From assembly GCA_023231475.1 (NCBI GenBank), contig JALJEE010001331.1:1-64000 (forward strand): a stretch of 64,000 nt of DNA. The letters run 5' to 3'. Origin of the DNA: Seison nebaliae (lineage: Eukaryota). The translations under genes were made by a program, and so were the position numbers. Under the pieces are notes generated by a model, which was not told the origin of the DNA, did no database searches, and saw nothing but the letters and a program-made list of their open reading frames with translations. Numbering within the stretch: the stretch's first letter is position 1; the number at the start of each line of letters is the position of its first letter. Below are positions 302 through 62,716 of the stretch, in pieces.

Positions 302-1664
302 TTAAAAGGTTGAACTTCTTAATTTCAATCTCGCATCGTTGCATAATTGGGCGATTATTTTTCTTATATCTTGGCGATAATTCAACGGCAAATTTGTATA
401 TTTTAGGTCAATTAAATCTAAAATTTGAATTAACCAGGAAATAATAAAAAAAACTTTCAATTTTTACCAATTTTTCGGAAGGTAATTCTGGGAATAATGT
501 AACTTTTGATTTATATCCGGTCGACACCGTAAATTCTTCCAAATTTTCATTTTTAAAAATGAACTTTGCTAAAATCCTAGCATCCACCAAGTAATCTGAA
601 AATGACATAATTGAAAAATACCTATTACGAAAATAAAATTTGGAAAAGTAAGATGAAAAATAACTTTTCATTCTCTTCTTGTAATTTTTGATTTTTATCA
701 ATATCTTTTTTTTTCATTTGAAGTAAATCTTGTAGCAACTGCGTATTCTTTTCAGTGGCATTCCTAATACCTCTCAAAACATCTAGCATTTCCGATGAAT
801 GATCAAGTTCGATATTTTGATGATTATTTGATAATGAGGAATCGGCTGAAAAAGAAAGTAAATTAAATTAAAAATAAATTTGATGATGAAAAATGGTGGT
901 AAAATAATTTAACTTTTAAATTTAGAAGAATAATTAGTTGATGTAGGAGAATATCTATTTATTGATGTGCAATAGTGATTGAGAGGTGTATGCTGACTGG
1001 AAAATGGCGAGGAATTATTAAATGATGAATGATTTTGATTATTGTAAAATGGTGATGACTCATTTGATTTATTTGAATCACTCGATGATAATCGATCAAT
1101 TGATTCAATTGAAAAAGGATTAGGAGATAGAAGAGTCCGATTATTCCGTGGATCATGATGATAAGTTACATCAGTTTGATTATTTATTGAACGTTCTAAT
1201 ATTTTCTTGGATGGTTTTCTCTTCTTTCTTTGACTTGGCATTGACTCTATATGGCATTTTCTTTCAGCCAATTCTCTTTTCTTCGAATTTGTATTTTGGA
1301 TAATTGCGTCCATTATGCATTTCAGAGGACCTTTTTTACTTCCCACTTGTACGATTTCACCTACATATATACATCCTCCAATTGAAATTTCACATTTCTT
1401 TTCTTCTACATATTTCACAATCGACTTTTCTTCGTAAATATCATAGGTAGTTTGATTATTTTGAGTAGCATTATTTTCAAATTTCAGTAAATAGTATTTC
1501 ATTTGACTATGTATCTTACTGATTGGAATTTGACCGATAGCCTGAACACATTTTTCATTTGTAGAATTTTCAATATTAATAATCAATTTTGAATTCGTTG
1601 ATGAACAATCTTCATTCCGTTCAATGTTATATCTGATGTTTTTTTGGTGCAATGTTCTATGCAT
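302..1664 (-). CDS. BEN-domain protein, 4 exons (about 1664-914, 845-665, 621-455, 417-302)
   Basis: Three GTT..AG introns join the track ORFs into one frame. The C-terminus ARILAKFIFKNENLEEFTVSTG..ELPSEKLVKIE..DIRKIIAQLCNDARLK fits the BEN helical pattern; there is a Ser/Asn-rich middle and a basic RKKRK motif. Confidence 0.65.
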
Positions 1665-3874
1665 TTTTATTGCGATCGATTTATTCTAAATAAATTCAAA
1701 AAGAATAATAAATATGATATAAATATTATAGTAATAAAATAAATATATTATGTCGCTCATGTGAAGTGTCACGTGATGTAAATCAGAAAGTCAGACATCA
1801 GAAAATAAATATTTAATTTCTTTATTTATAATTATAAAAATATATTTATACTTAAATAAAAATTATAAACTTAAATAATAATATCTTAAATTATAAAACT
1901 TAAGTTTTTCAATTAATAACATGCTCATGGATTATAATATATGTCGAATATTTCTGAAATTTTAGCAAAATTTTCACAAATTCATTAACATATGGATATA
2001 TATGATCATACATGAGAATTTCTCTATTGAACAATTGAAACGCTTCCCAGGGGAGGATTCAGATATGGAAATTTTCAGTTTTCATACGTGCTGTCATATA
2101 TATATCAGACAAGTGAATGCATGAAACATAACTGAGTAATATATGATTTTTTACGTGAAATATATATTAATTCTGATCTGTCTAACACATGGCCCCATAT
2201 ATTATCCTATGTTTCGCCGGTATAAAATAATTGATCTTAATCAAAATATTATTAAGATTATTTTTAAAAGTTTTATTTTCGTTCCATACGATTTCCTCTC
2301 ACTTCTCTACCTTCTTCTCACGACAGAAATCCCTATATCATATCAGTATTTTTCTATTTTATTGTACATGGGCTTATTTATGTCTTTGTTATGTAATTAC
2401 CTTTATGGTTATATGTTAAGTTATTATATGTTTTATGGTTATTTGTTTTGCACTTTTATATTTTATACAAATTAAATTCATGAACGTATGTCATGACATG
2501 ACATAAGAAATACACGAACAAGACCACTGCGCTATGAGATATATATTATTAACGTCGTATTGTTTATTACAAAGAACGTGTATGGTTACTATATTATGGT
2601 CAAATGTATTTGCAGTATTAAAGTAACTCCTTATTGTCTAAATAGGAGAAAACCGAATGAGAAAGAATGAGAACCTCACAAATAACATATGTGGTCAATC
2701 CATTTAACGAAGAATCGTTTTCAAATTTTATTAAGTAAAACATTATTCGCAAATCTTTCAACTTTAAAAAATGAATTTTCTCCACTAATTAGAACGTGTT
2801 AACTTTAAAATTAAATTAATGTAAAATCAAATTCAATTTAATTCTTTATAGAGAAACAAACTTATTTTTTTATTTTAAGATAAGGCTGTATAAGAACGAT
2901 ATTGTATTAAATTTGAGTAAATTAAAATTTTTTGAAAGTGTGAATCATAACCATCAGTGAATCACTGAGTTATTATGTCTCGTAATTTAAAAGCGAACCG
3001 ACCAGATAAACAAAGAATTGTTTATGAAAGGAAACCTGATAAGCGAAACCGATGCTCTAGAAAAAATGAACATCGAAACGGAATGGAGAAACCAACATCT
3101 CAAAGAAGTTGTGACGGGCCATGAATATTGAAAGAGATAAATTGAATGGGATGACGAGTGTTGTCCGATCAGGGAGATCGGGATCATTCTTCTCGTTTGA
3201 AAGTACGGTGGATCTTTGAATTGATGACGACGTCTCTACTGACTGAATCATCGATGGGTCACCGGGATTTTATTTATTCCTTCAACACATCTCTCAATCA
3301 AGAATTGATTTGTTGATGGATAGAAGACAAATTCGTCACAAATGCGATCCTAGAATCCAAAAAAAAAAAATTTTTTTTAATTTGTTCATGATTATTTCAT
3401 TTATTAAAAGGGGGCGAACTAAAACCATTTCCTTTCGTAGTTCGTTTCCCCATCACTACGAATTAGATGCCAATTTCTTAGATCTTTTTATTCGTTTCAT
3501 CATCGTTGCAGATATTTCTCGATTCAATTGAAGATCAACTTATTCGTCACATACTGTTACGATTTTTATGGACTAGCCGTTTCTTTGCCCAACAATTATA
3601 ATGCTTTTTGGTTGTTATAAGGCATTTAATATGCCGTTTATGTTTTCTGTCTGCGTATTGAAACCCTTTTTGATTTTTGATCTAATTTTCTTTTTAATTT
3701 TGATTTTACAATAAATAAATTAAATACAAATGATTACGATTTTCAATTTAGTTGATAATTGAACGGAGAAAATTGCATATGGGAAAAATTGGTGAGGAAA
3801 CGAACAAAAATATCATCATCCTTATTTTTGTGTGTTATCCTGGATTCCTTTATACTGAAATGTAAGCTTTAAGT

Positions 3875-4183: not shown

Positions 4184-4191
4184 TAATAATC

Positions 4192-5165
4192 GTAAATTAT
4201 TTACTTATTCTTATTTATTTATTTAAAGTAAGAAAGAAAGAGAGAAAAAAAAAATATAAAATAAATCTGTAAATTCCCATACAGGGATAATTCAAACGGC
4301 ACTCTCGAGGAGAATCCTCAGAGCACTAGACTGATTTGTTTCTATCAGGGTCTTGGCAGAATTTAAGGTGGCTACCTGTTCATCACGTAACCGAGACACT
4401 GGTGAGAACGAGAAGATGAACTCACGAAATTCAGTAGAAAGAGGTGAGTGCTTTATCGAATAATACACGATGGTGTGAAAAAAGATAGAATGATTCGATG
4501 TGATACAGCGTTGAATGAAGGATGGGATGTCGGGGAAGAGCCACGATGACAAAAAGTTGTCTAGGACGTGGAAAATGCGTCGACGATATAAAATAGGAAA
4601 TGGAGGAATATCGGTGACTGTGAAAATAAGATTCCGATTAATTCTTCGGAAGCAGCCGACGGACGATATTGTTGTAAGTTCGGTCCATTCTGAGGAATGA
4701 GCTGTTGGTGACGAATAATAATGAGTCGAGTCCATATAATGGGAGGACAAGTGAAGAGAAAACACGAATTCGGATTGAGAGTAGAAGATACTTCGATCGT
4801 GTTGCCAATGAGAATGATGTGCGGACGAAGTTATTTCGGATGTGATCGAGTGAGTCGGATGCCATCATTTTCGAATCGAGAAGAACTCCTAGGAACGTAT
4901 GATTTGGGGCAGGAGAAAGAGAGATATTCCTCAGGAGAGAGACAATAGTTTTCGTCGGATTTATCTTAACTGATATTTCCGCCTAGAGAATCTGTGCTCT
5001 TTCGCGAATTCGAATGAGTTGTCGAGGAGAAGTAGGAAATATGAGAATGTCATCAATGTATGCGAGTGCTACGGGAATTCGCATGCCCTTAATGTTGGTG
5101 TTATAAAGTTCATTCAATTGGAGAATGACCCAGTGAAGAGTGAGCGAAAAGCCAAGGTCCCAATT
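4192..5165 (-). mobile_element. Decayed 5'-truncated non-LTR (LINE-like) retrotransposon, reverse transcriptase C-terminal half
   Basis: The minus strand reads LGPWL/FSLTL..ALAYIDDILIF (YIDD at 5049-5060)..VKINPTKT..FLGVLLDSK..RIRVFSSLVLPLYG..YNNIVRRLL, which are RT palm/thumb motifs of LINEs. It has an in-frame stop at 4983-4985, frameshifts, and a (TAAA)n-like 3' tail near 4195-4225. Confidence 0.8.
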
Positions 5166-5508: not shown

Positions 5509-6252
5509 ATGAAAGATATCGAAAGACAAGAAGCAAATGCTCATATGGCTTCGGTGTTTAGAGCTCAGCAAATCTTGAATGGCAGATTCAATCAATTATT
5601 AAAAGAGAATATATCTGGAACTTTTTTGAAAATCTGTACTTTAACTATCGTTGGTCTAACTTTACAAATTATATATTTATTATTAAAAATTTTTGAAGTT
5701 CATTTGTACAGCTATTATGATTACTATGGAAGTGTTAAAACCAAAATATGCATGGTTCTTTCATACGAGGCCTGGAATTGTTGCTTCATGTATAGTAGGC
5801 GGCCTTTTGATAACACTGGTGATAGCAAGTTCATATTACTTTTATATTGTACTGCTAAAATTGTTCCTCAGATTTTAGGTTAAATCATGGAACTGGTGGA
5901 TTTATTTTGGCGTTTGGAATTAATGCAATTGTTTGGACTATATATGTATTAGTAACGGATTCTTGGGGAATTAATCGTGGTCTAGAAAAAAGTTACTTTT
6001 TCGTTTTTTCAATCGTTTCTCATCAAATTTTCAATATGGATAGCTGAAAAGGGTCGGATTATCTTGATTGTTCAAATAACGACCTGTGCGGCAATAATTA
6101 TTACTGCGGTATTAATCATTTATTTTTTCAGTAAAGTTTTATGTTGTTGGCGTAAAAGAATCACCAGACAGTTGATAAATGAGGGAGCCTTTAATGAGAA
6201 TGAAGTGAATATAATGAGACAATTGAATTTGGACAAACAAAGTTGTTGGTGA
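5509..6252 (+). CDS. Orphan membrane protein of about 199 aa with four hydrophobic segments, paralog A (4 exons)
   Basis: Introns 5650-5698, 5829-5871 and 5992-6043 (all GTT..AG) give a 600-nt open frame. It is collinear with paralog B at equivalent intron positions (EVLK, TRPGIVA, NA(I/L)(V/I)W, WRKR..L..EGA.N.NE). Confidence 0.75.
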
Positions 6253-6894
6253 ATGAACTGAGACCTTTTTAGCTTTTCCGGATAAGACTGGTAACTCTGT
6301 AATATAGAATCTATATCATTTGATATTTATCAAAATATTATATAAAGAATAATTTATTGATGATTCAAATATTTATCTAAAACTATTTAACACACAACAA
6401 CATCTTCTTGTTGTACTGATTGAGATTGGAAGTGATTAGCCAATATTGGAAAAATAATTGACTTTTCTTTTTCTGAAATATTTTTCATAACGGAACTCGT
6501 AGAATATACAATATAGTAGACATGCTTAATGATTAGGATTTCAGTTAATTAAAATTTAATGATCCTTGATGATTATCGATTTTTTATGCGAATATTTCAT
6601 TACAATTATAATTTATAACTGAACTTAGTTAACCAACTATAGTTGGTTCAGATTAACGTGATTAACGTGATTATACTGTTTATGCAGTATACTGCATGTG
6701 ACTGTTTATAGTGATTTATATTTAACATTAATTACTAATTCAAAAAATGTAACCTTACGCAAGAGTAAACACTAGTTTTTATCTATTTTTCTTGAGTAAA
6801 TATTGAGTTCACTTAAAAAGAAATTTCTAAGCGAGACACCTTAATAATAAAATATTTTACTCTTTTAACGAATTTCAATAACATTCCGAAAGAT

Positions 6895-7627
6895 ATGAAG
6901 GATCTAGAAAGACATACCGGGAATGAACATCTTGCAAATATGATGAGAACCCAACAAATATTTTATGAGCGTATGAATCAACTTTTGCATGAAAGTATTT
7001 CTCCCGTAAGATTGCAAATGGTAACTCTTTGTATTGTTGGTATACATTTAGTGTTAAGGATAACATCAATCTTATTCTTAGTGTATTAGTTCTCTTGGGT
7101 TAACTACGTTGGAAGTTCTGAAACGTTACTTTGCCGTAGTGTTTATTACAAGACCGGGAATAGTTGCCGCCTGTCTTTGTGTTTTACTGGCGATAGTGCT
7201 AATAATTGCAAGTTTCTTTTTTTAAATACTGTTTTGAATATACATGAAAACAGATTTTAAGTTAAACTTGCAGGTTGCCGGCATCACATGGGCGGTGGCG
7301 GTTAATGCGTTAATTTGGGTTATTTATGTAATGAGTACTAATATATACATTACAACCAATATCCACCTTAGTATTCTTTTTTAAATCTTTTCGTTGGTCT
7401 TATAATATTCTGTAGTATTATTTAAGAGAGCTCTAGGAATTATGATTTGTGAGATTATTCTTTGTTGTATCTTAATCATAGTCTTATTTATCATGTTAAT
7501 TGGTATTGGAAGATTAATTTTTGGTTGGAGAAAAAGAATGGTCAATCTTTTGGTCTCTGAAGGTGCATTGAATCAAAATGAAATCAACTCTATTGGAATG
7601 ACAAACTTTGGAACTAATTGGTGGTAG
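6895..7627 (+). CDS. Orphan 4-TM protein, paralog B (4 exons)
   Basis: Introns are 7036-7081, about 7212-7253, and 7371-7415. The protein aligns end to end with paralog A. The third donor is GTA, one of only two non-GTT donors I found. Confidence 0.75.
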
Positions 7628-13968: not shown

Positions 13969-14346
13969 TTATGCATCAGGAATTGAACATAAAGGATTCA
14001 ATGGAACGCATGCTCGCAATTCACCAGGTTTGGCATGTTCGCACAATTTTTCATATCCTTTGTGTGCCTTTTCTCGATTCTTTTCCCGTTTAATGTCATT
14101 AGCTTTCTTAATTTGGGCGGGAGATTTGGAACTCCAGAAACGTTTCAAAAACGTATGAGCTTCATCTTTTTCTAAAGAAAATGAGTAGTCAAAAATTATT
14201 TATATCAAAATTATTAGTCCAAAATATTAACGTAAGAAATTCACCAAGTCTTCCATCGAATCGTCGTCGGATTCACATCTCACGGATGTGAATAGAACGA
14301 AGCTCGATACGAGCAATAATGTGACAATGGACAAATGTTTGTACAT
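13969..14346 (-). CDS. 105-aa secreted protein precursor with a Gla-propeptide-like motif (matrix Gla protein-like); 2 coding exons, not in the ORF track
   Basis: Exons 14346-14232 and 14171-13969 are joined by a 60-nt GTT..TAG intron, giving MYKHLSIVTLLLVSSFVLFTSVRC-ESDDDSMEDLVNFLQKDEAHTFLKRFWSSKSPAQIKKANDIKREKNREKAHKGYEKLCEHAKPGELRACVPLNPLCSIPDA*. The signal peptide is clear; the family assignment is tentative. Confidence 0.65.
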
Positions 14347-15084: not shown

Positions 15085-18000
15085 TTAATCAATCGTTAAA
15101 TTATCGTTATTGTTTTCCGTATTTTGTATTGTCGAGGCTAACGATAGACGAGGTAATCCCGGTTCCAAAAAGGGAGAGAAATCTTCGTTTCGTGAATAAT
15201 AGATATGATTGTTCATTGGGAAATTGTTCGTTTTCTTTAGGTCATGACATTCACTTGATTCGTTGTTGGAGGTGGAATAATCGAAACTGAGTTTTTTCGA
15301 ATCCGTCAGAAATGATGTGGTACTAGCTGACATTTGATTATCATAATTCAAATGAGCTTCTCCTTCTGTTATTGATGATTCCTCAAATCGTTGTTGTTGA
15401 TATTGATATGAAGGATTGGTGATCGCATAGAAGGGAGTGACATGATTATCTTTCCATTTGGATAATTCTTTCGATAATGTTTTAATATTTTCACTATTCT
15501 TTATTCGTTGCATTGTTGTCTCATTGTCATTAGGGTTATTTCCTGAATTACATTCTGGAATATTCTGATTCACGGTATTAGTAGTAGTTGTAGGAGAAAG
15601 TGGAAGATTGGAGCAATTGCTAATCATCGATTTGTCATTAATAAAAAGAAATTTCAAATGCTCTTCAGCTTGTTCGATAGCTGCATCAATTTTGTTAACT
15701 GTGGAATTTAATGGAGAATCGAACTTCCAATCTTCAGGTAATAATTTAGGATGTAAATTGGCGTTGACAGAAAATACTGAACGAGAACGTTTTCCGTTGT
15801 CGATGGAAGTCCCATTAATTTTCTTGGTAAGATTTCTGATGAATTCAATATTATTATTCGTATCCAAATTCTTCATTCTTCCATCGATCTCTTCCGTTTT
15901 ATCATGTTGACTCTCATCTTCATCTTCTAATATTGTCACTTTGATATTATTCTTCTTATCGTCGACACTTAACATTGATTGTTTCGTTGAATTGATTTGA
16001 TGAGCTTTTGGAGAAGTATTCATAATATCAGTCAATGATGAAGAGGAAGCAAATGACATTTTTGAAAGAATATTATTGTCATTTTGGGTACTAATTGACT
16101 TATGCAGAAAACCATCTGATGGTTTCAATCGGGAAGAACGTCGTATAAAACATCGAACTGATATGATCATAATGATTGAAATGATTATCAAACTAATGAT
16201 TATTACAATCAATAACGTCGTTGATCGATGGAAACTTACCGTTCCATTTAAAATTGCATTATATTCATCATCTTTCCTCTTATTCTCATCCATCGGATCA
16301 TCCGCCAATAAATTGTCGGTTAATTTTCCTGTTTCTATTAAATTCTTATCGTTCGTTTCATAATATAATGCATTGAATGAATGAGTTAAAAGTAAGTTGA
16401 CTTTAACATAATTATTATATTTTTCTTTCGAAACAATTTGCATATTTTTATTATGAAATTCAAGTTTCATTTCATCAGACATCTTCGGGATAATAATTGA
16501 TAATTTGATGATAATTTTGAATAGATTTCTCTCATTCTTTACATTCATTCCATTTAACATATTTTCCGATAGAAGAAACTTGAAATAAATTAATCGATTT
16601 TCTGAATATTTATATTTCAATCGATACATATTGTCATCCAAATAATTGTCATTGGAACGATCAAATAAATTTAACGTTCTATTCTCACGAATTTCCACGT
16701 CGATACCGATTAGGGAAATATCTGTCAAATATTGTTCATTCGTCGGTCGTAATGATAATAATCCATACAACATATCACCAAAATGAAAGTTGTTAATTTC
16801 ATTTTTTTCCATACTATTCTCTTCATAAAACGGAAAAGTTTTCATCGAAAACGTCAAATCGAATTCCGATAGTAATTCTAAAAATTTTATCATAAATAAC
16901 TTTATGAAGAATTTTCCAAAGCAAAATTTAAAAAAACTTTTCGGACAAGTTGATATCTGTTTCACTTTTATAATTTCAAGTTTTTCGTTGTTGATTTCTT
17001 CTCGTAGAATTAAAGGTTTCTTTTCAAAATATCTACATTCCAACATCGTACAATTACAGACGACATGCTAGAAAATACATATAATTATTATTAATGGAAA
17101 AATGGAGATAAAAATTGATAATAACAATAGTTCTTTTCGTTTGTTCCGAGGTACACGATAAAGAATTTACGTCGAATAAGAAGTTATCGAAATTAGATAA
17201 TTTCGTGGACGTTCTCTCTTTTTCATAAGACAATAAGAATTGTTCCAATTGTAAATTGATATTCATTTGTAACTGACATGAATTCGAATTTTCTAAATGT
17301 TTCATTGATGAATTAATTTCATGAAACTTCGTATCAACTAATCCGTCTTGATTTTTAAATAAAATTTGTTTCAGGTTTATAATCTTGGTCCAATTTTGTA
17401 ATGCATTTATTAATCGAAATTCGATAATATGAGGTAATTCATTGTTATCGATCAGTTCATTGACAGATATGGACGAACGTTGGAAATACAACGGAAACAA
17501 GAAGGTAATTAATCTTTCGAAGTTCTTCTCAATCTCATAACTCATTTTTGGTAATTCACGAGTTGTTCCGTTAATAAATTTTATGAGGCATTCCACAAGT
17601 ATTCTTTCTTGACTTTCTGATTCTCCATCAAGTCTCAGAGACAAATTTAACTTCTCATTAATTCTTGTTAACCAAATATTCTTCTGATTAATATTCAACT
17701 GAATATTCTTCTTCGGTGCAATCGGTTCATTTAAGAAATGTTTTAGTTTGAGAGTAATATCAGTAAAATTAAATTTCGATAAATATTTCTTCATCGATCC
17801 CAATGAACGGCGATCTTTTTCTGTCAATTTTTCGGGCGGTATCAATTGAATCAATAATTCATCATTCCCACTCACCAAAGTATATTGAGCATTCGTTAAA
17901 ACTATTTTATAAACATGTTCACTCCTTTAAAAAAAAGTTAATTATATTATTATTCGAAAAGTTCCACAAAATGATTCTAACTTGTTTAATGGCGTAACAA

Positions 18001-21000
18001 TTTGACAGGGTTGAAGACTTTCGCCTTCATCAAAATATATTTGGTGAGAGAATATGACTTGTTCATTTAACATCGTCAAACAATCGATATTAGCGTGATG
18101 TTGAAGATTACCAATTCGTTTGACCAGCAATTCGCCCACTTGTATTTCCGTTTTAACATAATTCAATTCCCATGTTGAATAATCTAAATAAATGGAAATG
18201 GATTAATGGAATTGAGAGAATAAATAATGAGCATTTCTAACCATTTGTTAATGCAGAAACGATATCTATATAATCTTTTTGATTGATATTCTTCAAATTT
18301 AAAATTGGTGCTGGAACTTTAATGGAATTTTTATTTTTCTCAATTTTAGCGAACGAATTCGAAACAGTTGACACCGATGTAACAATAGAGATGGTGGACG
18401 GTAGACGTTGTTTTAAGAATTGGATGACCGACCATTGAATGATGAAAGTGAATTCTTTTCGTCGACAAGAGTTCTGTCCATTACAGAGGAAGAATGTAAA
18501 ACGGTCGTTTGTAGGAATAAGATTAGATCGTTCGTCCATTTGATGATATTGAGAATATCGACGATATCGATTATTTTCTTCACTCAATAACGAATGGTAA
18601 TCCAATTCATAAAATATTTTCCTATTATTTATTTCGATTTGAGAGAACATGGAAACGATTGAATTATCTCTCATGACTCGACCATATTTCGGTTGTGTTT
18701 GAATCTTATAAACGATATTAGAGATTGACCCGTATCGTTTATTTGAATTAATTGCCATTAATTCATTTTGTGTAATAACACGTCCATATGAATCATTTAA
18801 TGATAATGGATTATTGCTCAATTGAAAGATGTGAGCGAATCCTTTGTTTTTCAGCAATTCGATTTCATTTAATAAATAATTTCGACAATGAAAATACTCT
18901 TTCAAATCTATTTTAATGATAATGTCTATCCAATTTAATCGATTCCATTTCTTCCCATTCACATAAAATACAATTGATGAATTAGTTGTGAAAAATTTGA
19001 GGGAAATTGAAATTTTATTCTTTGTGGATTTTGGCTCTTTCATAATCATTCTTAATCTTCCTTTACCTCTCAACCAATCGTGCAATGAAATTTGATTAGT
19101 TACTCGCCACAAATGATTACGAGAACTCTCTAAATTAAAAGATCTACCCGATTTTAAAATGAGATAGATTGATTTATATTTTTCCAAATCGTTTTCCTTC
19201 TCAATTTCTAAAGATGAATTAGTTGAATAATAATAATCGATAATTTGGTTGTTCTTACATGATCCATCTCTTGTGTTCCATTTGTAAATCCATTCAGATG
19301 ATATCGTCATTGAAACATTCTCCTTTCTTACAATTTCCACGGATTGTTTCATTTCCATATCATATGCTATTTTATTTAATCCATCGTCAATTGTAAAGTT
19401 CATGAAGAAATTATCATAATAATTCCGATGAATATTGAGACAAATTGTATTTCTTAAAATATCACTGATTTTAAACGAGTAAATGGCGTTTCCTTTCTCA
19501 AACAAGCATTGACTTTTCGTATTATTTTTGAATAAATAAACTGATTCGATAAAAGATATTGTTAAAAAGAGATAATTAAAGAACAAACCTGATGGATTTC
19601 TTGAAATTAAATTAACATTTAATTCTTCGGGCGAATTGTCGACGTCATATATGAAGAATGCTTCGGTCATATCGAAACAATAACATTTAGTTTTGTTAAT
19701 TTTCCTATTCAATTGAATTTTCGTTAGTTTACTCCCGTGAATTTGAGGTTTCATCGATATTCTTTGAATTTCATAATGAAATTTTTGTTTTGAAAGTTTT
19801 TGTTGATTCGTTGAACAAATGATGTCGAATTCAAACCAACCAATTTGACGAGGTAATCGATCGGTTTTCATTCTTTTCAGTTTCAGTTTTTCTGGAAAAT
19901 CAGTAGAGAATATTTGTGGAAAAGAATTTGAATAAAACTTCTATTAATATCATTTTGAGTAAACGTTGTATTTGGAGGAATGATTTGTTCATTCAACAAC
20001 AAACTGATTTGGTTATTTGATGGATGAATAGTTCGATAAATATAAAAAATATTCGTACTCTGATTGTTATAACCATTGATTGAATACAAATAATTGTTAC
20101 TAATGATTACAGATGATTCTAAAAAGAAAATAATGAAAAGATCAGAAACTAAAAGAAAAAAATAGAACTTTCTTTCATTACCAATAATCGATTGCGTTTA
20201 ATAATAGGCAATGCATAATTCATTTGCATTTCTTCTTGCAATTTCTGATGTAATCGTTTTCGATCTTGTTCGAAGAATTCTTTAGGAAATTGAATGAAAA
20301 TTGTATAATTTTTCTTATTTTCATTTCGATCACTTAATCGTACGATGAAGAAATCTCGTTGATATTTACTTTCGATATTCAACGGATAATTCTTTTTGAA
20401 AACGAGCAAGAAATCTTTAATTTGTAAATAATTATATAGTTGTTTCATTTGAATATGATAAATTTGTTGTGTGTTTGACTGAAAAAGAATCTTTCCAAAT
20501 AATGGGAAAGCAATAAATTCGATGAAAATATCTTTCTCTTTCGTATCAGAATCTTCAATTGATTCAAATAAATTCTTAAATGCACAAAGTGATCGATTGG
20601 ACGAGAAATAGTTGCAAAAATATCTAAAATTAGTTTCATCGAATCGACTAAAATAGGGTTCATCGTCATCAATTTTCTACAAATAATGAATAATTCTTTT
20701 AAGTCAAATAATATTGGAACTTTAATATTGATAATTAATTTCATTGATTCGTTACTTTGTTGTATTCCATCGAAAGCTTTCAAGTGAATAGTCGCACTTT
20801 TCGTTTTACCTAACGGTTTTATATAAACCTTCTTCTCTAAAATATCCGTCAACTTAAACCGTTGGAGTGATATCTTCGGATCTAGAAACGAATAATAAAA
20901 TAAATTTCATTTAAACGGAAGTTTTAAACTTTGTTGATTATAAATTATGTAAGAATCATCATTTCCCATATGCACGATGGACAATTCGCTCAATTCACTA

Positions 21001-23581
21001 TCATGATCTTTGATATTGAACAAATCTTTTGGAAGGAGAATATTCTCATTCTCATTTATATGAAACTCATAAAGATATTCGGTAGAATTTCCGGTTTTGT
21101 AAACTTTGACGTTTTCCTTAAATGGCTGGGCAATTGTAGGGGCGATATTGTTAATTGGCTTTATTAGGATCGTTAATATTTGATCAGTTAAACGATTATC
21201 ATTCGAATCAATTACGTCAAAATGGATTTTATCAACAATCATGGAAGTTCCAATTTCTTTCGGTGCTTCATATCGTAATTGAAGATTATTTAAGTTATTC
21301 GTTGTAAACATATCACCAATAGTCAACGCAGTGATTGTCAAGTCTTCATCAGTAAATGTCTGGGATGATGTTAATTGCAATTGACCATAAACCGGTAATT
21401 TTATTAGAATAAATCGAAGATTTTTATCATTGTCTTTATAACAAATCGATTGATTTGTAATTGTAATTATCGAATTTTCTGGTATGCCATTTAACGTAAT
21501 CTCATCCAATTCATCATATGACAATTCTTGCAATCTATCATATATTAATAATGTACAACCGTTTTTTAATTCGGGAACTGTATCATCCATGTTATCCAAC
21601 CAACTTTTCTTATCGATTATCGATTCGAGATTCATTATATTCGATGAAGAAATATATTCATTCCAATCGAATGGTAATCGAAATTTTAAAAGTAATCGAA
21701 CCAAATTTAATCGATCACTCACTTCCACATAAATTTTCGTTTTTAAATTATTAATTTGTTGAATATCGTTTTCGATTGAATAGATATTGGAAAATTTTAA
21801 TAAGAAATCTTTATTCTTCATTTGGTCTAGATTCATCATTCGATCTGTTGATCTCACTCGATATCTATCCGTCGCGTCCTAGAAAAGAAGAAATTCGAAG
21901 AGATTAGACTTGCAGATATGGGAGGTTTCTTTTCAAAAAATTTAGAATTACCTGAAGAGAAGGCGAAGAAATATGCGAAATATTATAAAATGGAAAGAGA
22001 GGAAGTGAAAAATTGTTATAAGGATTTCATTATCGACTGTCCTACCGGCGAAATGAATTTTGATACATTTCATAATGTTAGGAAATGTATATAATTCGCA
22101 TATTTTTAGAAAAGTATTTGAAAATAGATTATGAAAACTGAATATTCAACAATAGAAGTGAGGAATATATCTCGTTTTTTATTTAACGCAATCGATCTCA
22201 ATGGCGATGGAATTTTCAATTTTTCCGATTATTTGGCAGTAATTCAAAAAGTGAAATCTAAACACAATTTTGATAAGTTATCTGTATTATTCAATATTTT
22301 AGATACGGAAAAAAAAAGTTCTTAATTTTTTGCCATAATTCTCTCCTAATTCATTCCTTAGAGCTGATTACTTATCGAGATCTTTGTATTGTGTTCAAAG
22401 AATTATTCTTATTATTGGGAGAAGATGAATCTGAAATCATAAACTCGATTAGTATCTGTGTTACAGCTCTGTATCAAGAACTTAATCTGAGGAAGAAGTC
22501 AAATATAAATGCTGAACAATTCTATCAATTATCTCTGAATCGATGAACTTAATTTAATTCAATGAAAATTAAATTTTAAACTAACTTGTTTAATGATGAA
22601 ATATAATTGTTGTAGATTGGTTGTTAAATCGTATATACTCTCTAGACATCCGCTAATATTGAAATGGAAATTAGAGAATAATTCCTTTTCTTCATAATTT
22701 CCAACAGTTAGAGAATTCTGTTGTAATCGATTATCGTCCAATAACTGTAGTTGCACTTGACATTGTGCTGTTTCAATTTCATGATTCTTAATATAAGTTG
22801 AATTAAAGAATGTTGGAGCCCAAAGATCGGTTGGAAGTATGAGAAGTCGAAAATCGAAGTTCAGTTTCTGCAGTTTCTCCAATGATGATATGGGCCATTT
22901 CCGTTTCAAATGTTGGAATGTTCGACTTTTAATAAGTTGCTGAATGTTAATTTTTATTTTGAATTGTAATTTCCCAAGAAAATATAAAATGATTTTCGAT
23001 GAAGACAATTCGTTGTTTGTCGCATTTTTGAAATATATCAATTTTCTCCATTTGATTTGATTGTGAGATACAGTTTGAATATAAACCTTTCCATGATTCA
23101 ATTGTTTCTGTGAAAAAGCATAATCAGATACTTCTCTAACATGTCTTTCTCCATCGACAAATAGCTGAATATTCAAAGGAAGTGAAGTAATTTGATAAAT
23201 TAGGAAGTTTTCGAATTCTTGTAATTGGACAATCTTTCTTAAAATGACTACTTCTTTCTGATTCCAAAGTTGCTTATCTTGATGCATATGATTAAATATG
23301 TCGAATATAGTCAAAGTATATATCTGTTGTTCGTTCAATAACTTGATATTGTTATTTTGAAGAATTTGCTCTTTAAACAATTGTGCTGCACCTTCTTCGG
23401 GTAAAAGGATTTTTCTTCTCTTCAACGATTGTTGAAGAAGAACATTGTTACGAGAATGTAATGAATTAAGTTGATATATTCCATTGTTGGATATTGATGA
23501 CGAAGAGAATAAGTTGCAGTAATATCGATCAATTGGAATAATGGAAATTATTAATATGAAACTCAATATGGATTGCATCAT
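15085..23581 (-). CDS. FRAS1/FREM-family extracellular matrix protein: signal peptide, CSPG (NG2-type) repeats, Calx-beta-like region, single TM, cytoplasmic tail; at least 9 exons
   Basis: Nine track ORFs join in frame via GTT..AG introns (707, 48, 44, 50, 47, 58, 57, 58 nt). CSPG motifs include LPVYGQL..FTTNNL..LRY..D.IHFDVID..IKPINNIAP, QPKYG..FSQIEINNRKIFY..DRFTF and FIIQWSVIQF. The TM segment is LLIVIIISLIIISIIMIISV. Confidence 0.75.
21918..22546 (+). CDS. Neuronal calcium sensor / recoverin-family EF-hand protein of about 177 aa, nested antisense in intron 1 of the FREM-like gene
   Basis: Exons are 21918-22076, 22128-22317 and 22362-22546. It has an N-myristoylation-type start MGGFFS, the NCS EF1 motif YKDFIIDCPTG, EF2 DLNGDGIFNFSDY, and KL..LF..LD before EF3. 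Confidence 0.85.
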
Positions 23582-32851: not shown

Positions 32852-33644
32852 TTATTGAATATGAAATTGATTAGATGATTCTTCTTTCGTTTTATGATCA
32901 GCGGGATTTGCTCTCATTTCATAATTCGTAATAACAACTCCTTCTTGCTTCCCCTGCAAAAGATGATAAATGAGAACATTTGAATTATCCAAAGAACGAA
33001 CTTGAAGAAAATCGCCTTTAAGTCCAATATAATAAACTTTTGTAGTTGTATCGTCATCACCAGAATTGTTTGATGGAATGAATAATGTCAATGAATAAAC
33101 ATTATTAAATTTCGTCACTCTGTGAGAGAAAGAATGAGAATAATAATTAAAAGAATTAAGAACTTCAATGGATATTCGAGAACGCCATTCTCATCATATT
33201 GCAAATCGAATTTCTGTTCACACTTCTTTGATTTAATGGCATCGAACGACAGTTGTGAATCGTTCACATTTTTAAACAATTCAACACAATCCGGATGTTC
33301 ATCACCTGGTGGTGCCATAATAATGATCGACTTCACTTTCACTAATCCGTTGAAGACGATATGAATCAACAATTCGCTATCACAATCACTTTCCACAAAC
33401 TTCCATCATCTCTCAATAATTATCATAAGAGGAAAAATCAAACTTTCGTTCTATCCATTCTCTCAGCATATGATCGAAAGAGATTCAGACAAGAATTATC
33501 AATTTTTTCATTGAAACATTTCGTTTGAAGATTATCAATTTTCTTGTAGAGAGAATATGCATTTTCCATCTCCTCTTTTGTCGTATGATCCAATTCATTA
33601 TGGTCATGATGACAACCACCATGATGATGATGGGGATGACTCAT
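32852..33644 (-). CDS. PITHD1: PITH domain-containing protein 1 (4 exons)
   Basis: Motifs MSHPHHHHGGCHH, YSLYKKID..CFNE, FVESDCDSELLIHIVFNGLVKVKSIII, LEYPLKVTKFNNV, TKVYYIGLKG and NYEMRANPADH. Introns are 33400-33443, 33120-33163 and 32954-33001. Confidence 0.93.
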
Positions 33645-36419: not shown

Positions 36420-36437
36420 ATTAAATGAGAAGAAATT

Positions 36438-39400
36438 CTATTTCTCTGTTTGGGGAACTGCCAAACAATTGTCTATCAATGACTGTTGCATCAATATGAA
36501 TTGAGATCTTTCCATTAAATCCGATTTCTTTACGAGTTCGGGCGATGACGAATTGTTAATAGATGAAATATCTTTTAACAAATTATCAGCATCCTTAAAT
36601 AAAAAATCATCATCAATATCATCCAGAATTGAGTCGTTTGAACTTTTATCACTTCCGTTATTTTGTTCTTTCGGTGTAACGGACGACAAATCAGTTTGTT
36701 TCGAATTGTATTTCAAATTTGTTTCATCAAAACTATTCATATTTTTTTCGACATCCACTTCCGTACTCTGATATCTAGGAGAAGAGGAGAAGTTATTGAA
36801 ATCCTTTGAAAAATAATTGATATTGTTATTCGTTTTTTTATAAGGTGTGTTAATATCAATATTATGATTGTTTTGATGATAATTATGTTTGTTGGAATCT
36901 TGAGATGGTCCTTTACTAGAATATTCCGTCATATTATTTACAATTAATTTATTGGATGATGCAGAAATAATAGTTTGTTTCATATGAGGATCATTTGGAG
37001 GAACGGGTTTATTCTCCATCTTTTTCATAACATTAGATGACATAGAATCGGGAGTTAATGGAATGTAAGGAGATATCATCGGAAATGGTGGTTGAGGCAT
37101 CGGAAATAAATTTCTTTGCATTATTGACATTGGCGGATTTCCAGGATTAGGTGGCGGTCCCGGTCCCATATAAGGGGGAAGCATATATTGATTATTCATT
37201 TGATTCCATTGCATCATATGATTATATTGTTGATGATGATGTTGTTGTTGTTGCTGTTGTTGTTGATAATGCAGTTGGAAATATTGTTGTTGATTTTTCG
37301 GTTGTTGATTATTCAATGTCAATTGATTTCGTTTAGAAGGTTTTAAAATTTTAGATTGATGTGATATTTCTAAATTAGTTTTAACGGGCCAAGTGGCGAA
37401 TCCATTATTCGACATTTGTTGGGATATCGACTTATTTCGATTATAACCAAATTTCATATATTGCGGTGTAGTGGGATGTGAAGGACAATTGGGATATGGT
37501 TGTTGTTGTTGTTGTGGTGATGGTTGTTGAGATGGAATTGGTGATAATTTGGATGGATGAAGAAATGGTTGTTTCATAAACGATTGATTTTGTATTCTAC
37601 TTATTGTTTTCGTTGATTTATTTTTCTCATTAACTTTCGTCGGTTTTTCAATTTCCGTCGTTTTATTCTCTAAATTCTTTTTACTCAATTCTTTCTTTTT
37701 CTGCATTTTCTGATGTTCATTATAATTCGCTAACGTACCAGTAATCGATGCAACTTCTCTTATCAGATCAGCTGATTGTTTATTTCGATTAATCAGCAAT
37801 TTAGAATTCTCTAAATTCGATGATTGACTACAATCACTATCTTTTATTAGAATATCTTTCTTCGATCTTTTTAATGAGGTTGCATCATCTCTCGATAAGT
37901 TACCAGCTAGTTTTGGATTAACTGGGAAGAAAGAGAATTGAAAACGATTCAATTCTGGATGGACAATATAATACATTTTCAATTCATTCATTTTATGTAG
38001 TAAAATCTTCTTAGTAATCCAATACTGAGTGATTGGAACAATTCCAACACTAGCCTCCTCATATAATTGGGAACTTGGTGTAGAAATACAAAAAAAATCG
38101 TTAGTAGTCCTCACAATTTTCATTGTCATATTATCGAATGCATTATCTTTCCTTATGAATGATAAAAGTAATTGTAATTTAATAATTAAATCATGATCGG
38201 ATATAGAAGGATAATTGGCTTCGAAGAACCATTCCTTCTCTTGGGCAATCTGTCGAGCAAACGGTCTAGTTAGCCAATTATAATGAAGTAAAGAATTGAG
38301 TAGACGATTTTGTAGGACTGTTAATCGATAATTGAAAATTACATCAGTTTTCTTATAAACTGTATTTTCGATCGACGAAATTTTTTTCCCTTGTAAATTT
38401 CTTAAAGAATCTTGTTGTAAACAATCTAATAATAAGATATCTAATAAAGCCGTATCATCTTCCGTTAATATCATCGAAATATTCATTTTAATATATTTGA
38501 TGTTACACTTCATAGTTGTTGGTCTTATTCGTTTTATATCAACATTCTCTTTCAAAAGATCATAAGTCTTCTTCTCATTACCTTCCTCGTCTACATTAAT
38601 GAACTGACGGACAGCGATCCATTCTTGTTTCATATATCGATCCCCAATGAAATATTGTGATATGACCGTTTCACTTTTTCGGATTTCATTCACTTCCGCA
38701 CTCGTCCATTTGTAATGACGTCGATGGCGTAATCGGAAAATTGTTGTTTGGTCATACATTTTCACTATGCCGAATTTCCCCATAATAAAATTACATTGCT
38801 AAATTTAAAAAGAAAAAAAGATAGAAAGTTTTCCGATGAATAAAATGAAACTTCTTCGATCATTTTCTTGTTACTACTATCTTCTTGGAATGGCATCGAT
38901 CCAGTCAACATGATGAAAGCGATAACACCACTCGCCCAAATATCGACTTTTCGTGGATCATATGAATGTCCTTTCAATATTTCGGGAGCTGCATATGCCT
39001 TCGAACCACAAAAAGTTCGGCTTAAACTAACCGGTGCCATATCGTCAAAATAAGTTTCACAATTATGACCACTGAAATAAGCATCTTTTATTCTTAGAAA
39101 AAGAATGATATTCTTCTCTTCTGAATCATCCATGTAAGCGATTTCGCGTCTTCGTTTCTCTAAAGCTGAAGTGTTTCGAGAACCATAAATCTCTTTTCTT
39201 AAAAAATCTTTACAATCTTTTGGAATATTAAAAGCATTGCTCGCTTTCTCCAAATAGAGTTGTGTAGCGAAACCGAAATCTGTCAATTTCAAATTTTGTT
39301 TGTCATCAAACAAAATATTCTCACATTTCAAATCGCGATGAGCAATATTATTAGAATGAATGTAATCTAATGCTTCCAACAACTGTTTCATCCATCGTCT

Positions 39401-40252
39401 CACCAAATAGAATTGAATTGACGAATTTTGTTGGATATAAGTCAATGCGTCACCACCAGACGCAAATTCGATAATTGAATATACGTTTGCCGAACCCATA
39501 AAACTATCGTAGAATTGAACGATGTTCTCATGTTTCAATTGTGGCCATAGAAGTAGTTCTCTAGGTAAGAATTTGCGACAGAAATCTTTCGGTGCTAATT
39601 TCAAATTAATCACTTTTACAGCACAAACTTGATTATTATATGGTAAGAGGAAAGTTAATCTTTCCTTCAACTTCTGAATAATTTCACATTTAACCGAATT
39701 CGTCTTAATTTGCCCTTTCTCTTCCTCCATGTCAATATCCAACAATTGAGTAACATGATCCGTATTATGTTTCAGGTAAGTTTCTGCACATTTCGCTTTA
39801 ATTTTCAACGTATCACACGCACGATATACTCGAGAATAAGAGCCTTGTCCTAACGCTTCTCGTAATTTAAGACATCTGGAATTCGTTTCTATATTATAAC
39901 CAATTAGCGTATCATCGTCGAAATTTAAATCTCTATCACTTATCGAACTTTGCAATTCATTATTCTCATCATTCTTAATCTCCGAATTCTCATTATTGTT
40001 AATCTTCATTTTATCTGTCTTTTTGATACTAGTGATACGTAAAGAAGAATCTTTCAAATGAGAAAGATTTGGACGAAAAATCGCACGCACAATTCTTCCA
40101 ATTGTTTGCACATTATCTTCATTATCATAAATTGATAAGGCTTCTCTCAGACGTTGTTGAAGATACTGTTCATCTGGAACGACGGCAATGTGTCCTGAAT
40201 CCCGATCAATAATCATTAATGGTCGTGCATTAACGGTGGAAGGTTCATTCAT
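36438..40252 (-). CDS. Testis-specific Ser/Thr kinase (TSSK) family protein of about 1250 aa, with large insertions and a Q/P/N-rich tail; 2 exons
   Basis: A 53-nt intron at 38799-38851 (GTTTC..TAG) joins the two track ORFs. TSSK motifs are LGQGSYS, APKDFCRKFLPRE, HRDLKCEN, DFGFA, LSRTFCGSKAYAAPEIL and YDPRKVDIW; a subdomain XI-like LLNSLLHYNWLTRP..WF lies in exon 2. Confidence 0.85.
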
Positions 40253-41076: not shown

Positions 41077-43063
41077 TTATTGATAATCAGAATCTGTACA
41101 TATAGGACGGGAGCGATATGCGTCAATCCAATCATCGATTAACGTTGAGACCACCGGAGTTTCCATAACTAAAAAGACGAATTAGATGATTTGAAAAAAT
41201 TTAGAGAAATATTCAAACTGACTGACGCCTTCGCTACCAGATGTCCATTGTTCGTTTCACCGATATCCATCCATTCGTCCAATAATTGTCTTTCATGTCC
41301 CATCTTGAACAATAAAGGAAGATTAATAAAGAAAGAGTAAATAGATGAACTTGTTCGGATGAAACAAAATGAACAGGAAGAAGATCTCCATTGAAATCTT
41401 CAATAGGAAGATAATATTTATTGAGAATGGTATTGGTCGAATTATTATTATGATCGCGACGATTAAATGAAACATTCGCATGTTGATTAATTGCACGATT
41501 ATTTTTCTGATCAACGGCTAACAATGCACAAAAATGATCTTTTACATATCCGAGAGCAATTGGCGATTTGAAACATTTCGTCGATTGTTTCCATAATAAC
41601 GGCAAATAAATTCCTTGAAATCGAACAAAGTCAATCGCCTCTCCATTCAGATTACATGCATGCTTCACACTATAAATGATGATCGGTCTCCTCAACACAT
41701 GAGCTAATACGAACACGTGTACTTGATCGAGTGCCGAACCATTTTCCCTGCCCATTCTCAACATAGCTTTCCATTCTTTATCCCAATTATCTTCGGATAA
41801 TTCATATTTCAAATTATTCGATGCCACTTCCACTTCATATTCATAGCAACGTTTCTTAAATTGAATTGATGAACGTTCCATTGAACGTGCCATTCCATTT
41901 CTGAGAATATTATCAGTGTCTAACACACCATAAAGTGCTTGGAGGACACTGTTCAAAAGACAATCGCCTGCACCCTTATTCCAAATGGCAAATAAACAAC
42001 TCGTATCTCTGACATCTTCACACCAATTAATGCAGAAACCTTTCTCCAACTCTTTCTGCATGAAACGATCAAAACTATCGTGATATAATTGTTCGATCGA
42101 TCGTTTTCTCAAACTGAAAATATTTGCGGGAAGAATAAATGTTGGCCATTCGTCCAACGTATAACAAATAAGTGACGATTCGGGAACTTTTATTAAAGAT
42201 AAAGAAACTGTCAAATGTTTCTGAATTAGAAATGCCGCTTCCACTGCATGTGAACATGGCGTCCGTCTCACATTTACATTATTCTTCATTTTATTATCTT
42301 TCATTGTGTTCAATCTATCTGAGGTATTAGCTGGATGTGGTTTATGTTGGAGGAACGATCTCGATTGTCCACATAATGTGCAACGACGACTGTTCTGATA
42401 ATTCTCATATGTACATGCATCACATTTCCACTTGTTTGATGGTATGACAACGGATTCCGATTGATCTGATGATGGAGAATTTCTTATTTTATTTTCATTC
42501 GATTCATCGTTTATAGTTATTTTTGGTGAATTGTTTCTATCTATTTTTTCTTCATTTGTCGTCGTTGTAATGGAAGTCTCTCTATTGTCATTGGATTTAA
42601 ATTCTAAATTTATCGGAGATTCCTGACCACACATACAACAATGTCTTGTCTTCAAATAATTGAGATATGTACATCTCTCACATTTCCATTTGTCAACGAT
42701 ATTCTTCTTATTCTCTTCATTCGAATTGATATTTGAATATTTATTTTGTTTATCATCCAACGTTGTTGTCGAAAGAGAAGATGATGGTGATCTTCTCATG
42801 ACTGATGATGTTGTGGAAGTGGTAAGAGAATTCTTATTATCATCATTTTCACATTGTTTCTCATTCGACTCCTTCAACTTCCTCCAACGTTTATTCATTG
42901 AATAATTATTAAAGTTGTTGTTTGTCGTTCTCTCATTAGAATTGTCCGATTCAGTTTTCGATGTAGTTGACGAATGTGGTTGACGACACATCGTACATTT
43001 CATTGTACGTCGATAATTCAGATAAGTGCAAGATGAACATTCCCATTTTTCTGAATCAGACAT
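41077..43063 (-). CDS. ZRANB1: TRABID OTU deubiquitinase with three NZF zinc fingers (3 exons)
   Basis: Three W.C..C.Y.N....C..C fingers; OTU motifs WNKGAGDCLLNSVLQA, HVFVLAHVLRRPIIIY, FQGIYLPLLW and KSPIALGY..HF. Introns 41304-41350 and 41169-41218 restore the C-terminus LLDEWMD..LVA..PVVSTLIDDWIDAYR. Confidence 0.93.
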
Positions 43064-59800: not shown

Positions 59801-62716
59801 TACATTCGATGACTGTGAAGAATTTGGATGATAATCCAAAAGAAGGTGCAACAGATAATTCAAAATATGAAGTAGAAAGTTCTCGTCATTTGATGAAAGC
59901 GTTGAAAGACGAGAATGAAACGTTATTAAATAAAGTACGTCAAATGGAAAAGATATGTATCGATGTTGACGCCGTTCGTGATCAGTTGTTTTTATTAAGA
60001 GATTCATATCATTCAGAAAAGAATGAATGGTCATTCAACAAACAATATTTGGAGGAACATATAGGAGAACTTGTTGAGATTAAAAATAACTTAACAAAGC
60101 AATTCGCTCAACTAAAAATGACACAATCAGAACCAAGTCAAAAGAAGAAAACTTTATCTGTTTCCACATCTCCAATCATTCTTCCACATGAACAAAGTAA
60201 ATTTAAATTCAACCTCAAAGAAAATGAAAATATCAAAAAAAATGAAAATAGTAAAAAGAAATTTCTACATATTAAACAATTATCTCCAATTGTTTCAAAG
60301 AAGCAAATCGAGACGGAGCCAGAGAATAATGCTTCTTCGAGAATTAGCGACACTGTTAAGTTGTTGACGAAACGATTTGAAAAATCTAAAGTGAAAAGTG
60401 TATCATCAGGTGAAGAGAAAGTTAAGGTATCAACATTAGTCAAAGTACAAGACAGAAGTAATACAATATTGGCGAAAATGGAAAAACAGAACTCAGTTTC
60501 ACGAACCGAATCGCCATCAAATACCACTATTCCACTATCGATGAGAGGTAAAGTGAAAAGTTTGGAGAATTCTTTTATTTTTCTGTTTGAATCTTTATTT
60601 TACTTAATATTTTCCAGAATCCTTCTTCAAGAAGACAACACAAGATGAAAAATCATCAACAGCAATTTCAAATATTCGAAATTCCAAATATAAATCGTCA
60701 ACTCTTCTTCCAGGCAAAGTCAAAGAAGTTAATTTTTCATTAGTACTTGTAAAGTACATCAATAACATTTCTCATTCTCACAATAGCCAACGACAATTAA
60801 TGAATTCTATTCATCGAGTGAAGATAAATTATTATCAGAGAATAGACAACCAACTAATACTCCGTCGAAGAATGGCGATGAATTAAATAAATTTGCAACA
60901 AGTCTTTTACAAGCTGATGACCAAAATACGAATGAAAAGAAATCAAAAAATTTCGAAGAAACTTTAGATGAGGTTACATCTTTTAGGAATACTTTTATTT
61001 AATAAATTGTTTAGGCGATGAAAAAATTGGAATCGTTGAAAGAACATTTGAGTTTATCAACCAGTGAAATTTTTCTGGGAAATGTTCCATTTGAAGAAAA
61101 GAAAAAAGTGAAATTATTAACATTGAACAAAAGTCATTTTTCTCCGATGAAAATTACGAAAAGGCAAGAGAGACAACCTTCACCGGCTGTCTTTTCACAA
61201 ACCCAACTCGCTAATAAGATTCTGGGAATGAACATCATGAACAGAAGAAGTAAAAGTCGAGAGAAAAGTGTAGGGAAACGATTAAATACTCCAGTGGTGA
61301 TATTACCTTCTCATTTCCCCGATATTACTGCCACCAATGACACTGGAGCATCCATCGAAAATTTATTAAACTCAACTGAAATTCTTGATAAATCATCTCC
61401 TAATCGAACTCCAATTCTCATACCTCAAACGTTGAGTACGCCAAAACAGAATGGATTTGTCTCAGATAAAAACGGAAAGTCATCGACTCGGTCGATCTCA
61501 ACTCCAAAATCACAAAAATCGAATTTGGGTAATTTGCTAAAAAGACCAAATAAGATACCATTAAACTTCTCCAATAATTCTTCTACACCTGAATCGTCTC
61601 CAGGCAGAAAAACTGATAGAAGAATCTGGCGATCGATATCTCCATGGAACGGTTTTTTCTTTTGCTTTTCAATTTTTATTTCAAATTTTCTTTCAAATTT
61701 ATTTTTTAGGATTAAGAAGTCGTTCATCGTCTCGTGATCGTGAAGGGAAGACATCTGAAAGTAAATTGAATTTATTAAAACAAATTTCGTTGAAGAAACA
61801 GAAAATCGAAGAAAAGGATGAAAACGAGAATGAATATGAAATGTCTGACAACAATTCAATGGTGAAAAATGACGAATTAATGGAGACATCTGTAGAGATT
61901 CTTCGAGAACTTCATCCATCGAATCGGATTGATTTAGGAACGGATTCTAATAAGTCGATTAATGATTCAAATTCAAATAAACCTATCTCTCGTCAAGTGA
62001 CGTTCAGTGACGATATTCGAATATCTGAAAATAGTCAAACAATTCACGAATATCAACAAGCTTCTAATGCTGCAGTTGGTTATGCGTCAATGAGAAGTAA
62101 TTATTCAACTGATCATACATTGTCACCAAATTCACCACAATTATATATGAATAATTCCACAACTAATTCCATCATGGATGCCGATGAACATTTTATGAAT
62201 AATGGACAAATAGAAAATAATAATGAAATTATACCGGAGTCATCATCAAATCATCCATATTGGTCAGTCGATCATGTTACTCAAGATACAATTCCAGATT
62301 TAGTCCAATCGACGGTTCCCACTCGATCTCAACGTTTATATAATAAAATTTCCAAAAAATCAATGAATAAAAATAGCAGTAATAACAATAATAGTCACAA
62401 CAACAACAACAATAATAATACTAATGGAAATTCTTTAAATAGATTCCAATCGTCCAAAAATAAAAGTTCAAGTTATTTCCCTTCGTCTCTTCTCATAAAT
62501 TCTTAATATGTTCGATTTTAATCATATCGTGCAGTAGATAAAGAGAATAACCAAAGTACAGTAGAATCACCAAATCCCAATAAGAATATCAATACCAATT
62601 ATAGATGTAGTAGTGTAGATAGTCGTTCGTCAAGCTGCTCATCCAATACACGTCTTATGTCCAGTACGGCTAGACCGTTGATGATGGGCAATAATGGAAT
62701 GGAAGAAAACTATTAA
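53824..62716 (+). CDS. SOGA/MTCL1-family long coiled-coil protein, about 7 exons
   Basis: SOGA-like motifs ELEEMKLEMEELQDQFRVEDADQLRILQSELDSAHRSCRVLQFKV and LEDELQIAKEVSVRLHAEL. Downstream exons join via GTT..AG introns to a stop at 62714-62716. Linkage of the Ser/Thr-rich 53824-54970 exon via a 1251-nt intron (54971-56221) is frame-consistent but less sure. Confidence 0.75.

Follow-up and report, generated by a model that had tools for sequence, protein, structure and literature searches.

A near-universal GTT donor signal in a 64-kb window of the rotifer Seison nebaliae and a possible change in the reader of intron position +3

Position +3 of the intron pairs with nucleotide 6 of U1, a small nuclear RNA (snRNA), and the pairing of U1 with the 5' splice site (donor) has been regarded as locked where a genome is rich in introns, since a change would disturb every gene at once. 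Statements on published work refer here and below to the accessible parts of the reports cited. Donors have been divided into a U5-type, AG//GUNNN, and a U6-type, NN//GURAG, and +3 faces G44 of U6, where purines interact weakly (PMC11732430). The closest described system is that of Entamoeba with GUUUGU(U) donors and a co-evolved U1 arm, ACAAAC; its motif is a strict one of 6-7 nucleotides (nt), 96.9-98.5% of the donors being GUUUGN, and the genome is intron-poor (10.1101/2022.06.08.495308). The same report describes compensatory U1 5' arms in both Entamoeba and Mastigamoeba. As far as we found, a +3U consensus with a changed U1 arm has been reported only for Entamoeba. Here we describe the donors of Seison nebaliae, an epizoic marine rotifer with two described lineages and compact genes (PMC8351084), in the first 64,000 nt of contig JALJEE010001331.1 (assembly GCA_023231475.1; GC content about 30%), the whole stretch being called the window. 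Nearly all its introns start with GTT. All donor results are based on this one 64-kb window and on NCBI annotation and homology.

Three exons of the window matched the NCBI proteins SNEBB_009595, SNEBB_009598 and SNEBB_009599 of Seison nebaliae at 99-100%. Mapping these three proteins letter for letter, with no preference at +3, gave 32 annotated introns, 31 of which started with GTT and one with GTC, while GTA and GTG did not occur. The Wilson interval for the GTT share was 0.84-0.99. Placement as a GT/GC-AG intron was unique in each of the 32 cases and all were GT; with 0/32 donors carrying A or G, the purine typical of animals at +3 was absent. In comparison, GTT accounts for 41% of GTN in the non-coding training regions and for 43% window-wide. 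The NCBI gene models of Seison are predictions whose training is not stated. Two methods blind to +3 were applied as well. Profile-based spliced alignment, scored for GT/GC-AG only, yielded 18 introns (15 GTT, 1 GTC and 2 GTA) with 16 donors as annotated. An ab initio predictor given no donor information beyond GT, with a coding model trained on the same window and with weights for length and acceptor set by hand after introns had been seen, yielded 39 introns, i.e. 35 GTT, 2 GTA, 1 GTG and 1 GTC. GTT was found in 32 of the 33 predicted introns of up to 80 nt (p = 8e-12 against the 41% background) and in 21 of the 24 outside the INTS9 and SIDT genes.

The initial annotation of this DNA had counted about 58 introns, almost all GTT. 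We examined 52, and four more lie in a paralogue pair with unfixed junctions; the dominance of GTT stood. Six introns cited in that annotation, two each in PITHD1, a ZRANB1-like gene and a small nested gene (coordinates below), were found in place with GTT...AG ends, and its two exceptions, GTC at 44866 and GTA at 7371, are correct. The long introns are GTT too, the one of 1251 nt by annotation and the one of 707 nt (22585-21879, minus strand) by prediction blind to +3. Thus the unusual GTT donor signal in the window is confirmed as real on the sequence evidence. By extrapolation from this single window, near-universal GTT very likely holds genome-wide.

An artefact would have to come from bias of annotation or prediction, or from T-rich introns. 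The models are indeed predictions, the support is annotation and homology and not spliced reads, the introns are 50% T, and the blind runs chose non-GTT donors in 3/18 and 4/39 cases. On the other hand, few alternatives compete with the annotated donors. For the 26 INTS9 and SIDT introns we scored all frame-open options within -60/+45 bases, with neighbours fixed, on profiles built from 79 and 72 homologues outside Seison. Fourteen of the 26 had no frame-open GTA or GTG alternative at all; of the remaining 12, 11 had an annotated donor that outscored the best such alternative, in six by at least 5 bits and in five by less. Only SIDT intron 7, located in an unconserved stretch, lost to a GTA/GTG alternative, by 2.5 bits. 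Among all alternatives the annotated intron ranked first in 21/26. Furthermore, the unchanged blind predictor produced GTA 93, GTT 30, GTG 12 and GTC 9 (n = 144) on 17 bdelloid-like loci of similar GC content. Because the bdelloid loci yielded mostly GTA, the predictor does not manufacture GTT. T-rich drift as the source of GTT was rejected. We consider an artefact very improbable.

As a bdelloid control, metagenome contigs were scanned with nine bdelloid SIDT proteins, which gave 24 loci (L006-L029), 23 of them with best hits to Rotaria or Adineta. L027, with best hits to insects, was excluded from the counts and duplicate introns were removed. This left 143 distinct introns, of which 128 had well-aligned flanks and 15 failed the flank filter. 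With the same spliced aligner the +3 base of the 128 introns was A 115, G 7, T 5 and C 1, figures that represent about 16 orthologous positions across many loci and are not independent. Inclusion of the 15 filter failures raised +3T to 11/143. Beyond +3 the bdelloid donors had +4A in 82, +5G in 63 and +6T in 63 of 128. Bdelloids resemble Seison in median intron length (53 versus 51 nt), GC content, several intron positions and a strong constraint at +3, where their donors are more constrained than anywhere else beyond GT. The same position is equally constrained in Seison, yet to the complementary letter. Unlike Seison, bdelloids have A at +3 and carry +5G in about half of their donors, and +5G is far rarer in Seison (11/52 versus 63/128, p = 5e-4). 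Judged from the sequences, GTT donors are specific to Seison relative to bdelloids. Annotation, both blind methods and this control support the lineage-specific donor code proposed initially and rule out selection bias in manual splicing, which had been named as refuting it.

The intron positions also bear on the age of the introns. Four of the 14 Seison SIDT introns (44018, 44327, 44866 and 46091) share profile column and phase with bdelloid introns, and at the shared positions the bdelloid introns start with GTA in nearly all loci. By these exact matches, old introns changed their third base. At 46088-46093 (plus strand), where GTA (46088) and GTT (46091) are in-frame tandem donors and annotation favours GTT, the shared bdelloid position settles the choice for GTT; the site offers a natural test of the preference at +3. 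Three more Seison SIDT introns lie within six columns of bdelloid introns, while 7/14 lack a nearby bdelloid counterpart. The latter would fit introns copied recently from an Introner-like element that chances to start with GTT. Yet the four shared positions, an intron-body similarity that does not exceed shuffles (maximal score 31 versus 31-37) and the lack of structure (mean z -0.18) largely refute such an origin, to which we give next to no credence.

The anatomy of the signal was derived from a pooled set of 52 introns: the 32 annotated ones, 16 that the blind run gave and 4 obtained with a GTT prior. This set omits ambiguous non-GTT blind calls and the paralogue pair; it is curated and leans to GTT, so its 51/52 is not an unbiased rate. 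The exon end showed -2A in 38 and -1A in 33 cases with -1G in only 9, and AA in 27, an exon signal that the initial annotation had missed. Its statement that +4 to +6 vary freely was borne out for +6, which is at background level, but not for +5G (11/52 against 6% background, p = 3e-4) and +4A (23/52, p = 0.03). The 52 donors comprised 30 distinct hexamers. C was found at +3 in 1/52, whereas about 21% would be expected of a reader of both pyrimidines such as G (p = 6e-5). In intron interiors T makes up 50% and G 6%; the median intron length is 51 nt, and acceptors read YAG or AAG and show little further signal. Taken together, the Seison donor signal as read from sequence is AA/GTT with a weak residual +5G.

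U12-type donors have A at +3 and TCCTT at +4 to +8. This class was rejected because +3A is lacking and only 2/50 introns come within one mismatch of TCCTT; ATATCC is the U12-type donor given in PMC3033335. A canonical U1 bound one base over (GTT-AAGT type) would fit the first three bases, and A is common at +4 and +5. Yet +6G is not enriched (5/52, p = 0.22), AG stands at +5/+6 in 2/50 short introns, and it is +5G of the normal register that is enriched (p = 3e-4). A shifted register was therefore rejected and is extremely unlikely.

The GTT introns are very likely spliced by the major spliceosome. We favor the view that its reader of +3 has changed to adenine, most likely at nucleotide 6 of U1, and assign this a probability of about 0.45. 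Short GT-AG introns starting with AA/GTT would then be spliced by a major spliceosome with an altered +3 reader, an adenine forming an A-U pair with +3 and located in U1 rather than in U6. U1 would grip the donor mainly through +1 to +3; pairing with the U-rich loop 1 of U5 would fall to the A-rich exon end, and the short (median 51 nt), U-rich and G-poor introns would provide the remaining information through intron definition. The constraint at +3 is kept while its letter is flipped from A to U, the outcome to be expected if the pairing partner underwent one change. The near-exclusion of +3C points to adenine as the facing base, and residual -2A, +4A and +5G argue for the normal register. 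U1 is the first choice because arm changes have been reported in Entamoeba and Mastigamoeba, while the ACAGA box of U6 is invariant in 240 fungal species. With a single U1 change the mean number of matches over -3 to +7 rises from 4.6 to 5.5 of 10, a rise that follows from +3T itself and comes near the 6.0 that bdelloid donors reach with the canonical arm.

Several points weigh against an altered U1. In Saccharomycotina the donors changed, yet 236 U1 candidates are invariant (PMC10581693). A canonical U1 was kept in Giardia, Trichomonas, Thecamonas and Micromonas and is the commonest outcome among lineages with changed donors (10.1101/2022.06.08.495308). A change of nucleotide 6 alone leaves -1A (33/52) and the loss of +5G (11/52 versus 63/128) unexplained, and the intron set is curated with its lean to GTT. 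A U1 gene recovered from the DNA runs has to be considered as well. An Rfam scan of the window gave no family at or above the gathering score; the four matches obtained at E up to 5 were at chance level, with no snRNA among them, and a U1 pattern scan of viral contigs gave four chance matches only. A pattern scan did find an animal U1 gene in locus L005 (43-160; Rfam 143.8 bits). This contig (1-758) is filed in a gammaproteobacterial metagenome-assembled genome and links the U1 gene to a 5S rRNA fragment; it is most likely host contamination. Compared with the L005 gene, the contigs of three runs contained one U1 sequence per run, which takes in the two bases upstream of U1 and the gene up to nt 116, differs by 18 substitutions and 2 gaps, and continues into an Sm-type site. 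Nine substitutions were displayed (nt 34-80, including G34U in loop I), with compensated stems. The run sequence is gap-free through the whole 5' arm at about 83-85% identity to the L005 gene, so the arm is largely conserved. Of the nine substitutions not displayed, about 4-5 are demanded by stem pairing and the rest could fall in the arm or in stem-loops 2-3, and nucleotide 6 is not callable. The depth of 5.4/16/15 compares with about 15 and 28 for single-copy window DNA, and the gene may belong to the host or a different animal and not to Seison. The depth mismatch and a GC-rich flank make its organism uncertain.

Alternatively, the snRNAs would be canonical and a changed protein (U1C, LUC7, Prp8, Dim1, SNU23 or SNRNP27K) would read or tolerate only +3U, most of the RNA work being left to the pairing of U5 loop 1 with the A-rich end of the exon. 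Donors more commonly shift with no change of snRNA, the proteins of Seison have diverged strongly (INTS9 is 23-37% identical to its relatives), the exon-end AA in 27/52 together with weak +5G fits the U5-type class, and the gap-free 5' arm of the run U1 contig agrees with a canonical U1. Yet the known protein-linked shifts affect +4 and do not produce a near-complete switch at +3 (PMC10581693), and we regard a protein reader as somewhat unlikely. The reader might also reside in U6, either by a change of G44 in the ACAGA box to A or by an unchanged G44 that selects +3U through G-U wobble after weakened U1 pairing. The contact of +3 with G44, where purines interact weakly (PMC11732430), and the suggestion of Roy and Bowser that GUUUGU could pair better with U6 (10.1101/2022.06.08.495308) are in line with this. 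However, an unchanged G should accept C, which occurs once in 52; +5G, the main U6 contact, is weak in Seison; and ACAGA is invariant across the 240 fungal species (PMC10581693). A U6 reader is thus improbable, and an adenine at nucleotide 6 of U1 remains our preferred reading.

The annotated introns belong to three genes on the plus strand. INTS9 (SNEBB_009595, 33880..36419; 643 residues with a Beta-Casp domain) has 12 introns of 41-74 nt, all GTT, with donors at 33895, 34047, 34146, 34333, 34455, 34591, 34843, 35009, 35764, 35932, 36105 and 36216. The SID-1/SIDT gene (SNEBB_009598, 43786..47043; 831 residues) has 14 introns, 13 GTT and the GTC intron at 44866. A SOGA/MTCL-like coiled-coil gene (SNEBB_009599, 53833..62716) has six introns, all GTT, including the 1251-nt intron 54971-56221, for which the blind predictor picked a GTA donor at 54908 instead. 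DNA-like contigs of runs X1 and X2 carry a second sequence of low depth, about 85-87% identical in exons (window 32700-52600); the species has two described lineages (PMC8351084). Joints of this sequence fall within two introns, 8 and 11 bases in (36223 and 46918), which is too weak as evidence of conserved donors. Pieces of it near 47.2-47.7, 49.5-49.8 and 51.7-51.9 kb suggest exons missed by the ab initio predictor.

On the minus strand, PITHD1 (32852..33644) has GTT introns at 33443-33400 and 33163-33120, with the PITH profile continuous across both junctions, and the ZRANB1-like gene (41077..43063; RanBP zinc fingers and OTU) has them at 41350-41304 and 41218-41169. A protein kinase gene whose C-terminal exon is long (36438..40252, minus) has one GTT intron, 38851-38799, which joins the kinase exon to one of 786 codons that is partly Q/P-rich and has no Pfam match. 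A Cadherin_3 (CSPG/FRAS1-like) repeat gene (15085..23578, minus) has nine predicted introns, all GTT in the run blind to +3, including the 707-nt intron. A small gene on the plus strand (21919..22546) with GTT introns 22077-22127 and 22318-22361 lies wholly within that intron (21879-22585), antisense to its host. Its initial label "NCS" was not confirmed, and its fragments have no Pfam match. An unnamed gene (302..3251, minus) has GTT introns 913-846 and 454-418 in the blind run, while two other donors are ambiguous: the blind run placed GTC at 3155 and GTA at 628, the run with the GTT prior used 3071 and 664. A small predicted gene (13969..14346, minus) with one GTT intron, 14231-14172, was found only with the GTT prior. 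A tandem paralogue pair on the plus strand (5509-6252 and 6892-7627) encodes a hydrophobic protein of about 200 residues without Pfam match, and homology leaves its junctions unfixed. The GTA donor at 7371 belongs to the second copy, which also has an in-frame TAG (7087-7089) at an aligned, gap-free position; this copy is possibly a pseudogene, with an allele or readthrough as alternatives for the TAG.

Some features lie outside these genes. An intronless open reading frame of 1117 residues (8279-11629, minus) combines an intermediate-filament-like rod, below the Pfam cut-off, with a protein kinase domain. About 8 kb (24400-32700) contain no predicted gene or Rfam match. At 4292-4982 (minus) there are short broken reading frames in a GC-richer stretch, presumably a remnant resembling a non-LTR retroelement; the fragment tested had no Pfam match.

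In a search of the full-text literature, with most subscription journals outside it, we found neither an account of splice signals in Seison nor an animal whose donor consensus is GUU. The accessible parts of PMC8351084 and PMC10125929 contain nothing on donors, and the terms splic, intron and snRN are absent from PMC12256650. The initial statement that no such animal is known thus holds as far as the search goes, although among eukaryotes a similar change exists in Entamoeba with its GUUUGU donors and co-evolved U1. The GTT donor consensus of Seison is apparently the first in an animal. We take it as an even bet that Seison is the first animal with a re-coded donor of the major spliceosome, in which an adenine would face +3 in U1 (or U6) and tens of thousands of ancestral introns would have switched GUA to GUU, with no mass loss of introns such as went with these changes in amoebae. 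An intron-rich animal with A to U at +3, beside a +3A sister clade that shares intron positions, lets the co-evolution of spliceosome and introns and the identity of the +3 reader be tested, and a public genome and mRNA-seq exist for that purpose. Because minimap2 and miniprot prefer GTR donors (PMC12766944), gene models of the Seison lineage may be distorted.

Among known systems, the Saccharomycotina resemble Seison in that the donor preference of the major spliceosome changed across a lineage, but their change is from +4A to +4U, linked to the loss of METTL16 and SNRNP27K with U1 and U6 invariant, whereas in Seison +4 is nearly free and +3 changed (PMC10581693). The U5-type class shares weak +4 to +6 positions and exon-side information, yet its exons end in AG where those of Seison end in AA, and its +3 is free where that of Seison is fixed as U (PMC11732430). 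Entamoeba shares a near-universal +3U, GT-AG introns of short length and an AT-rich genome (10.1101/2022.06.08.495308). In Seison, however, only +3 is fixed, GTTTG occurs in 4/50, +5G is weak, exons end in AA, and introns are many, with 12 in the 643 residues of INTS9 and 14 in the 831 of SIDT. While the change of the U1 arm is demonstrated in Entamoeba, the likeness of Seison is known from its donors alone. Seison works like Entamoeba in fixing +3U, yet it stands outside the Entamoeba system, being intron-rich and having no strict motif.

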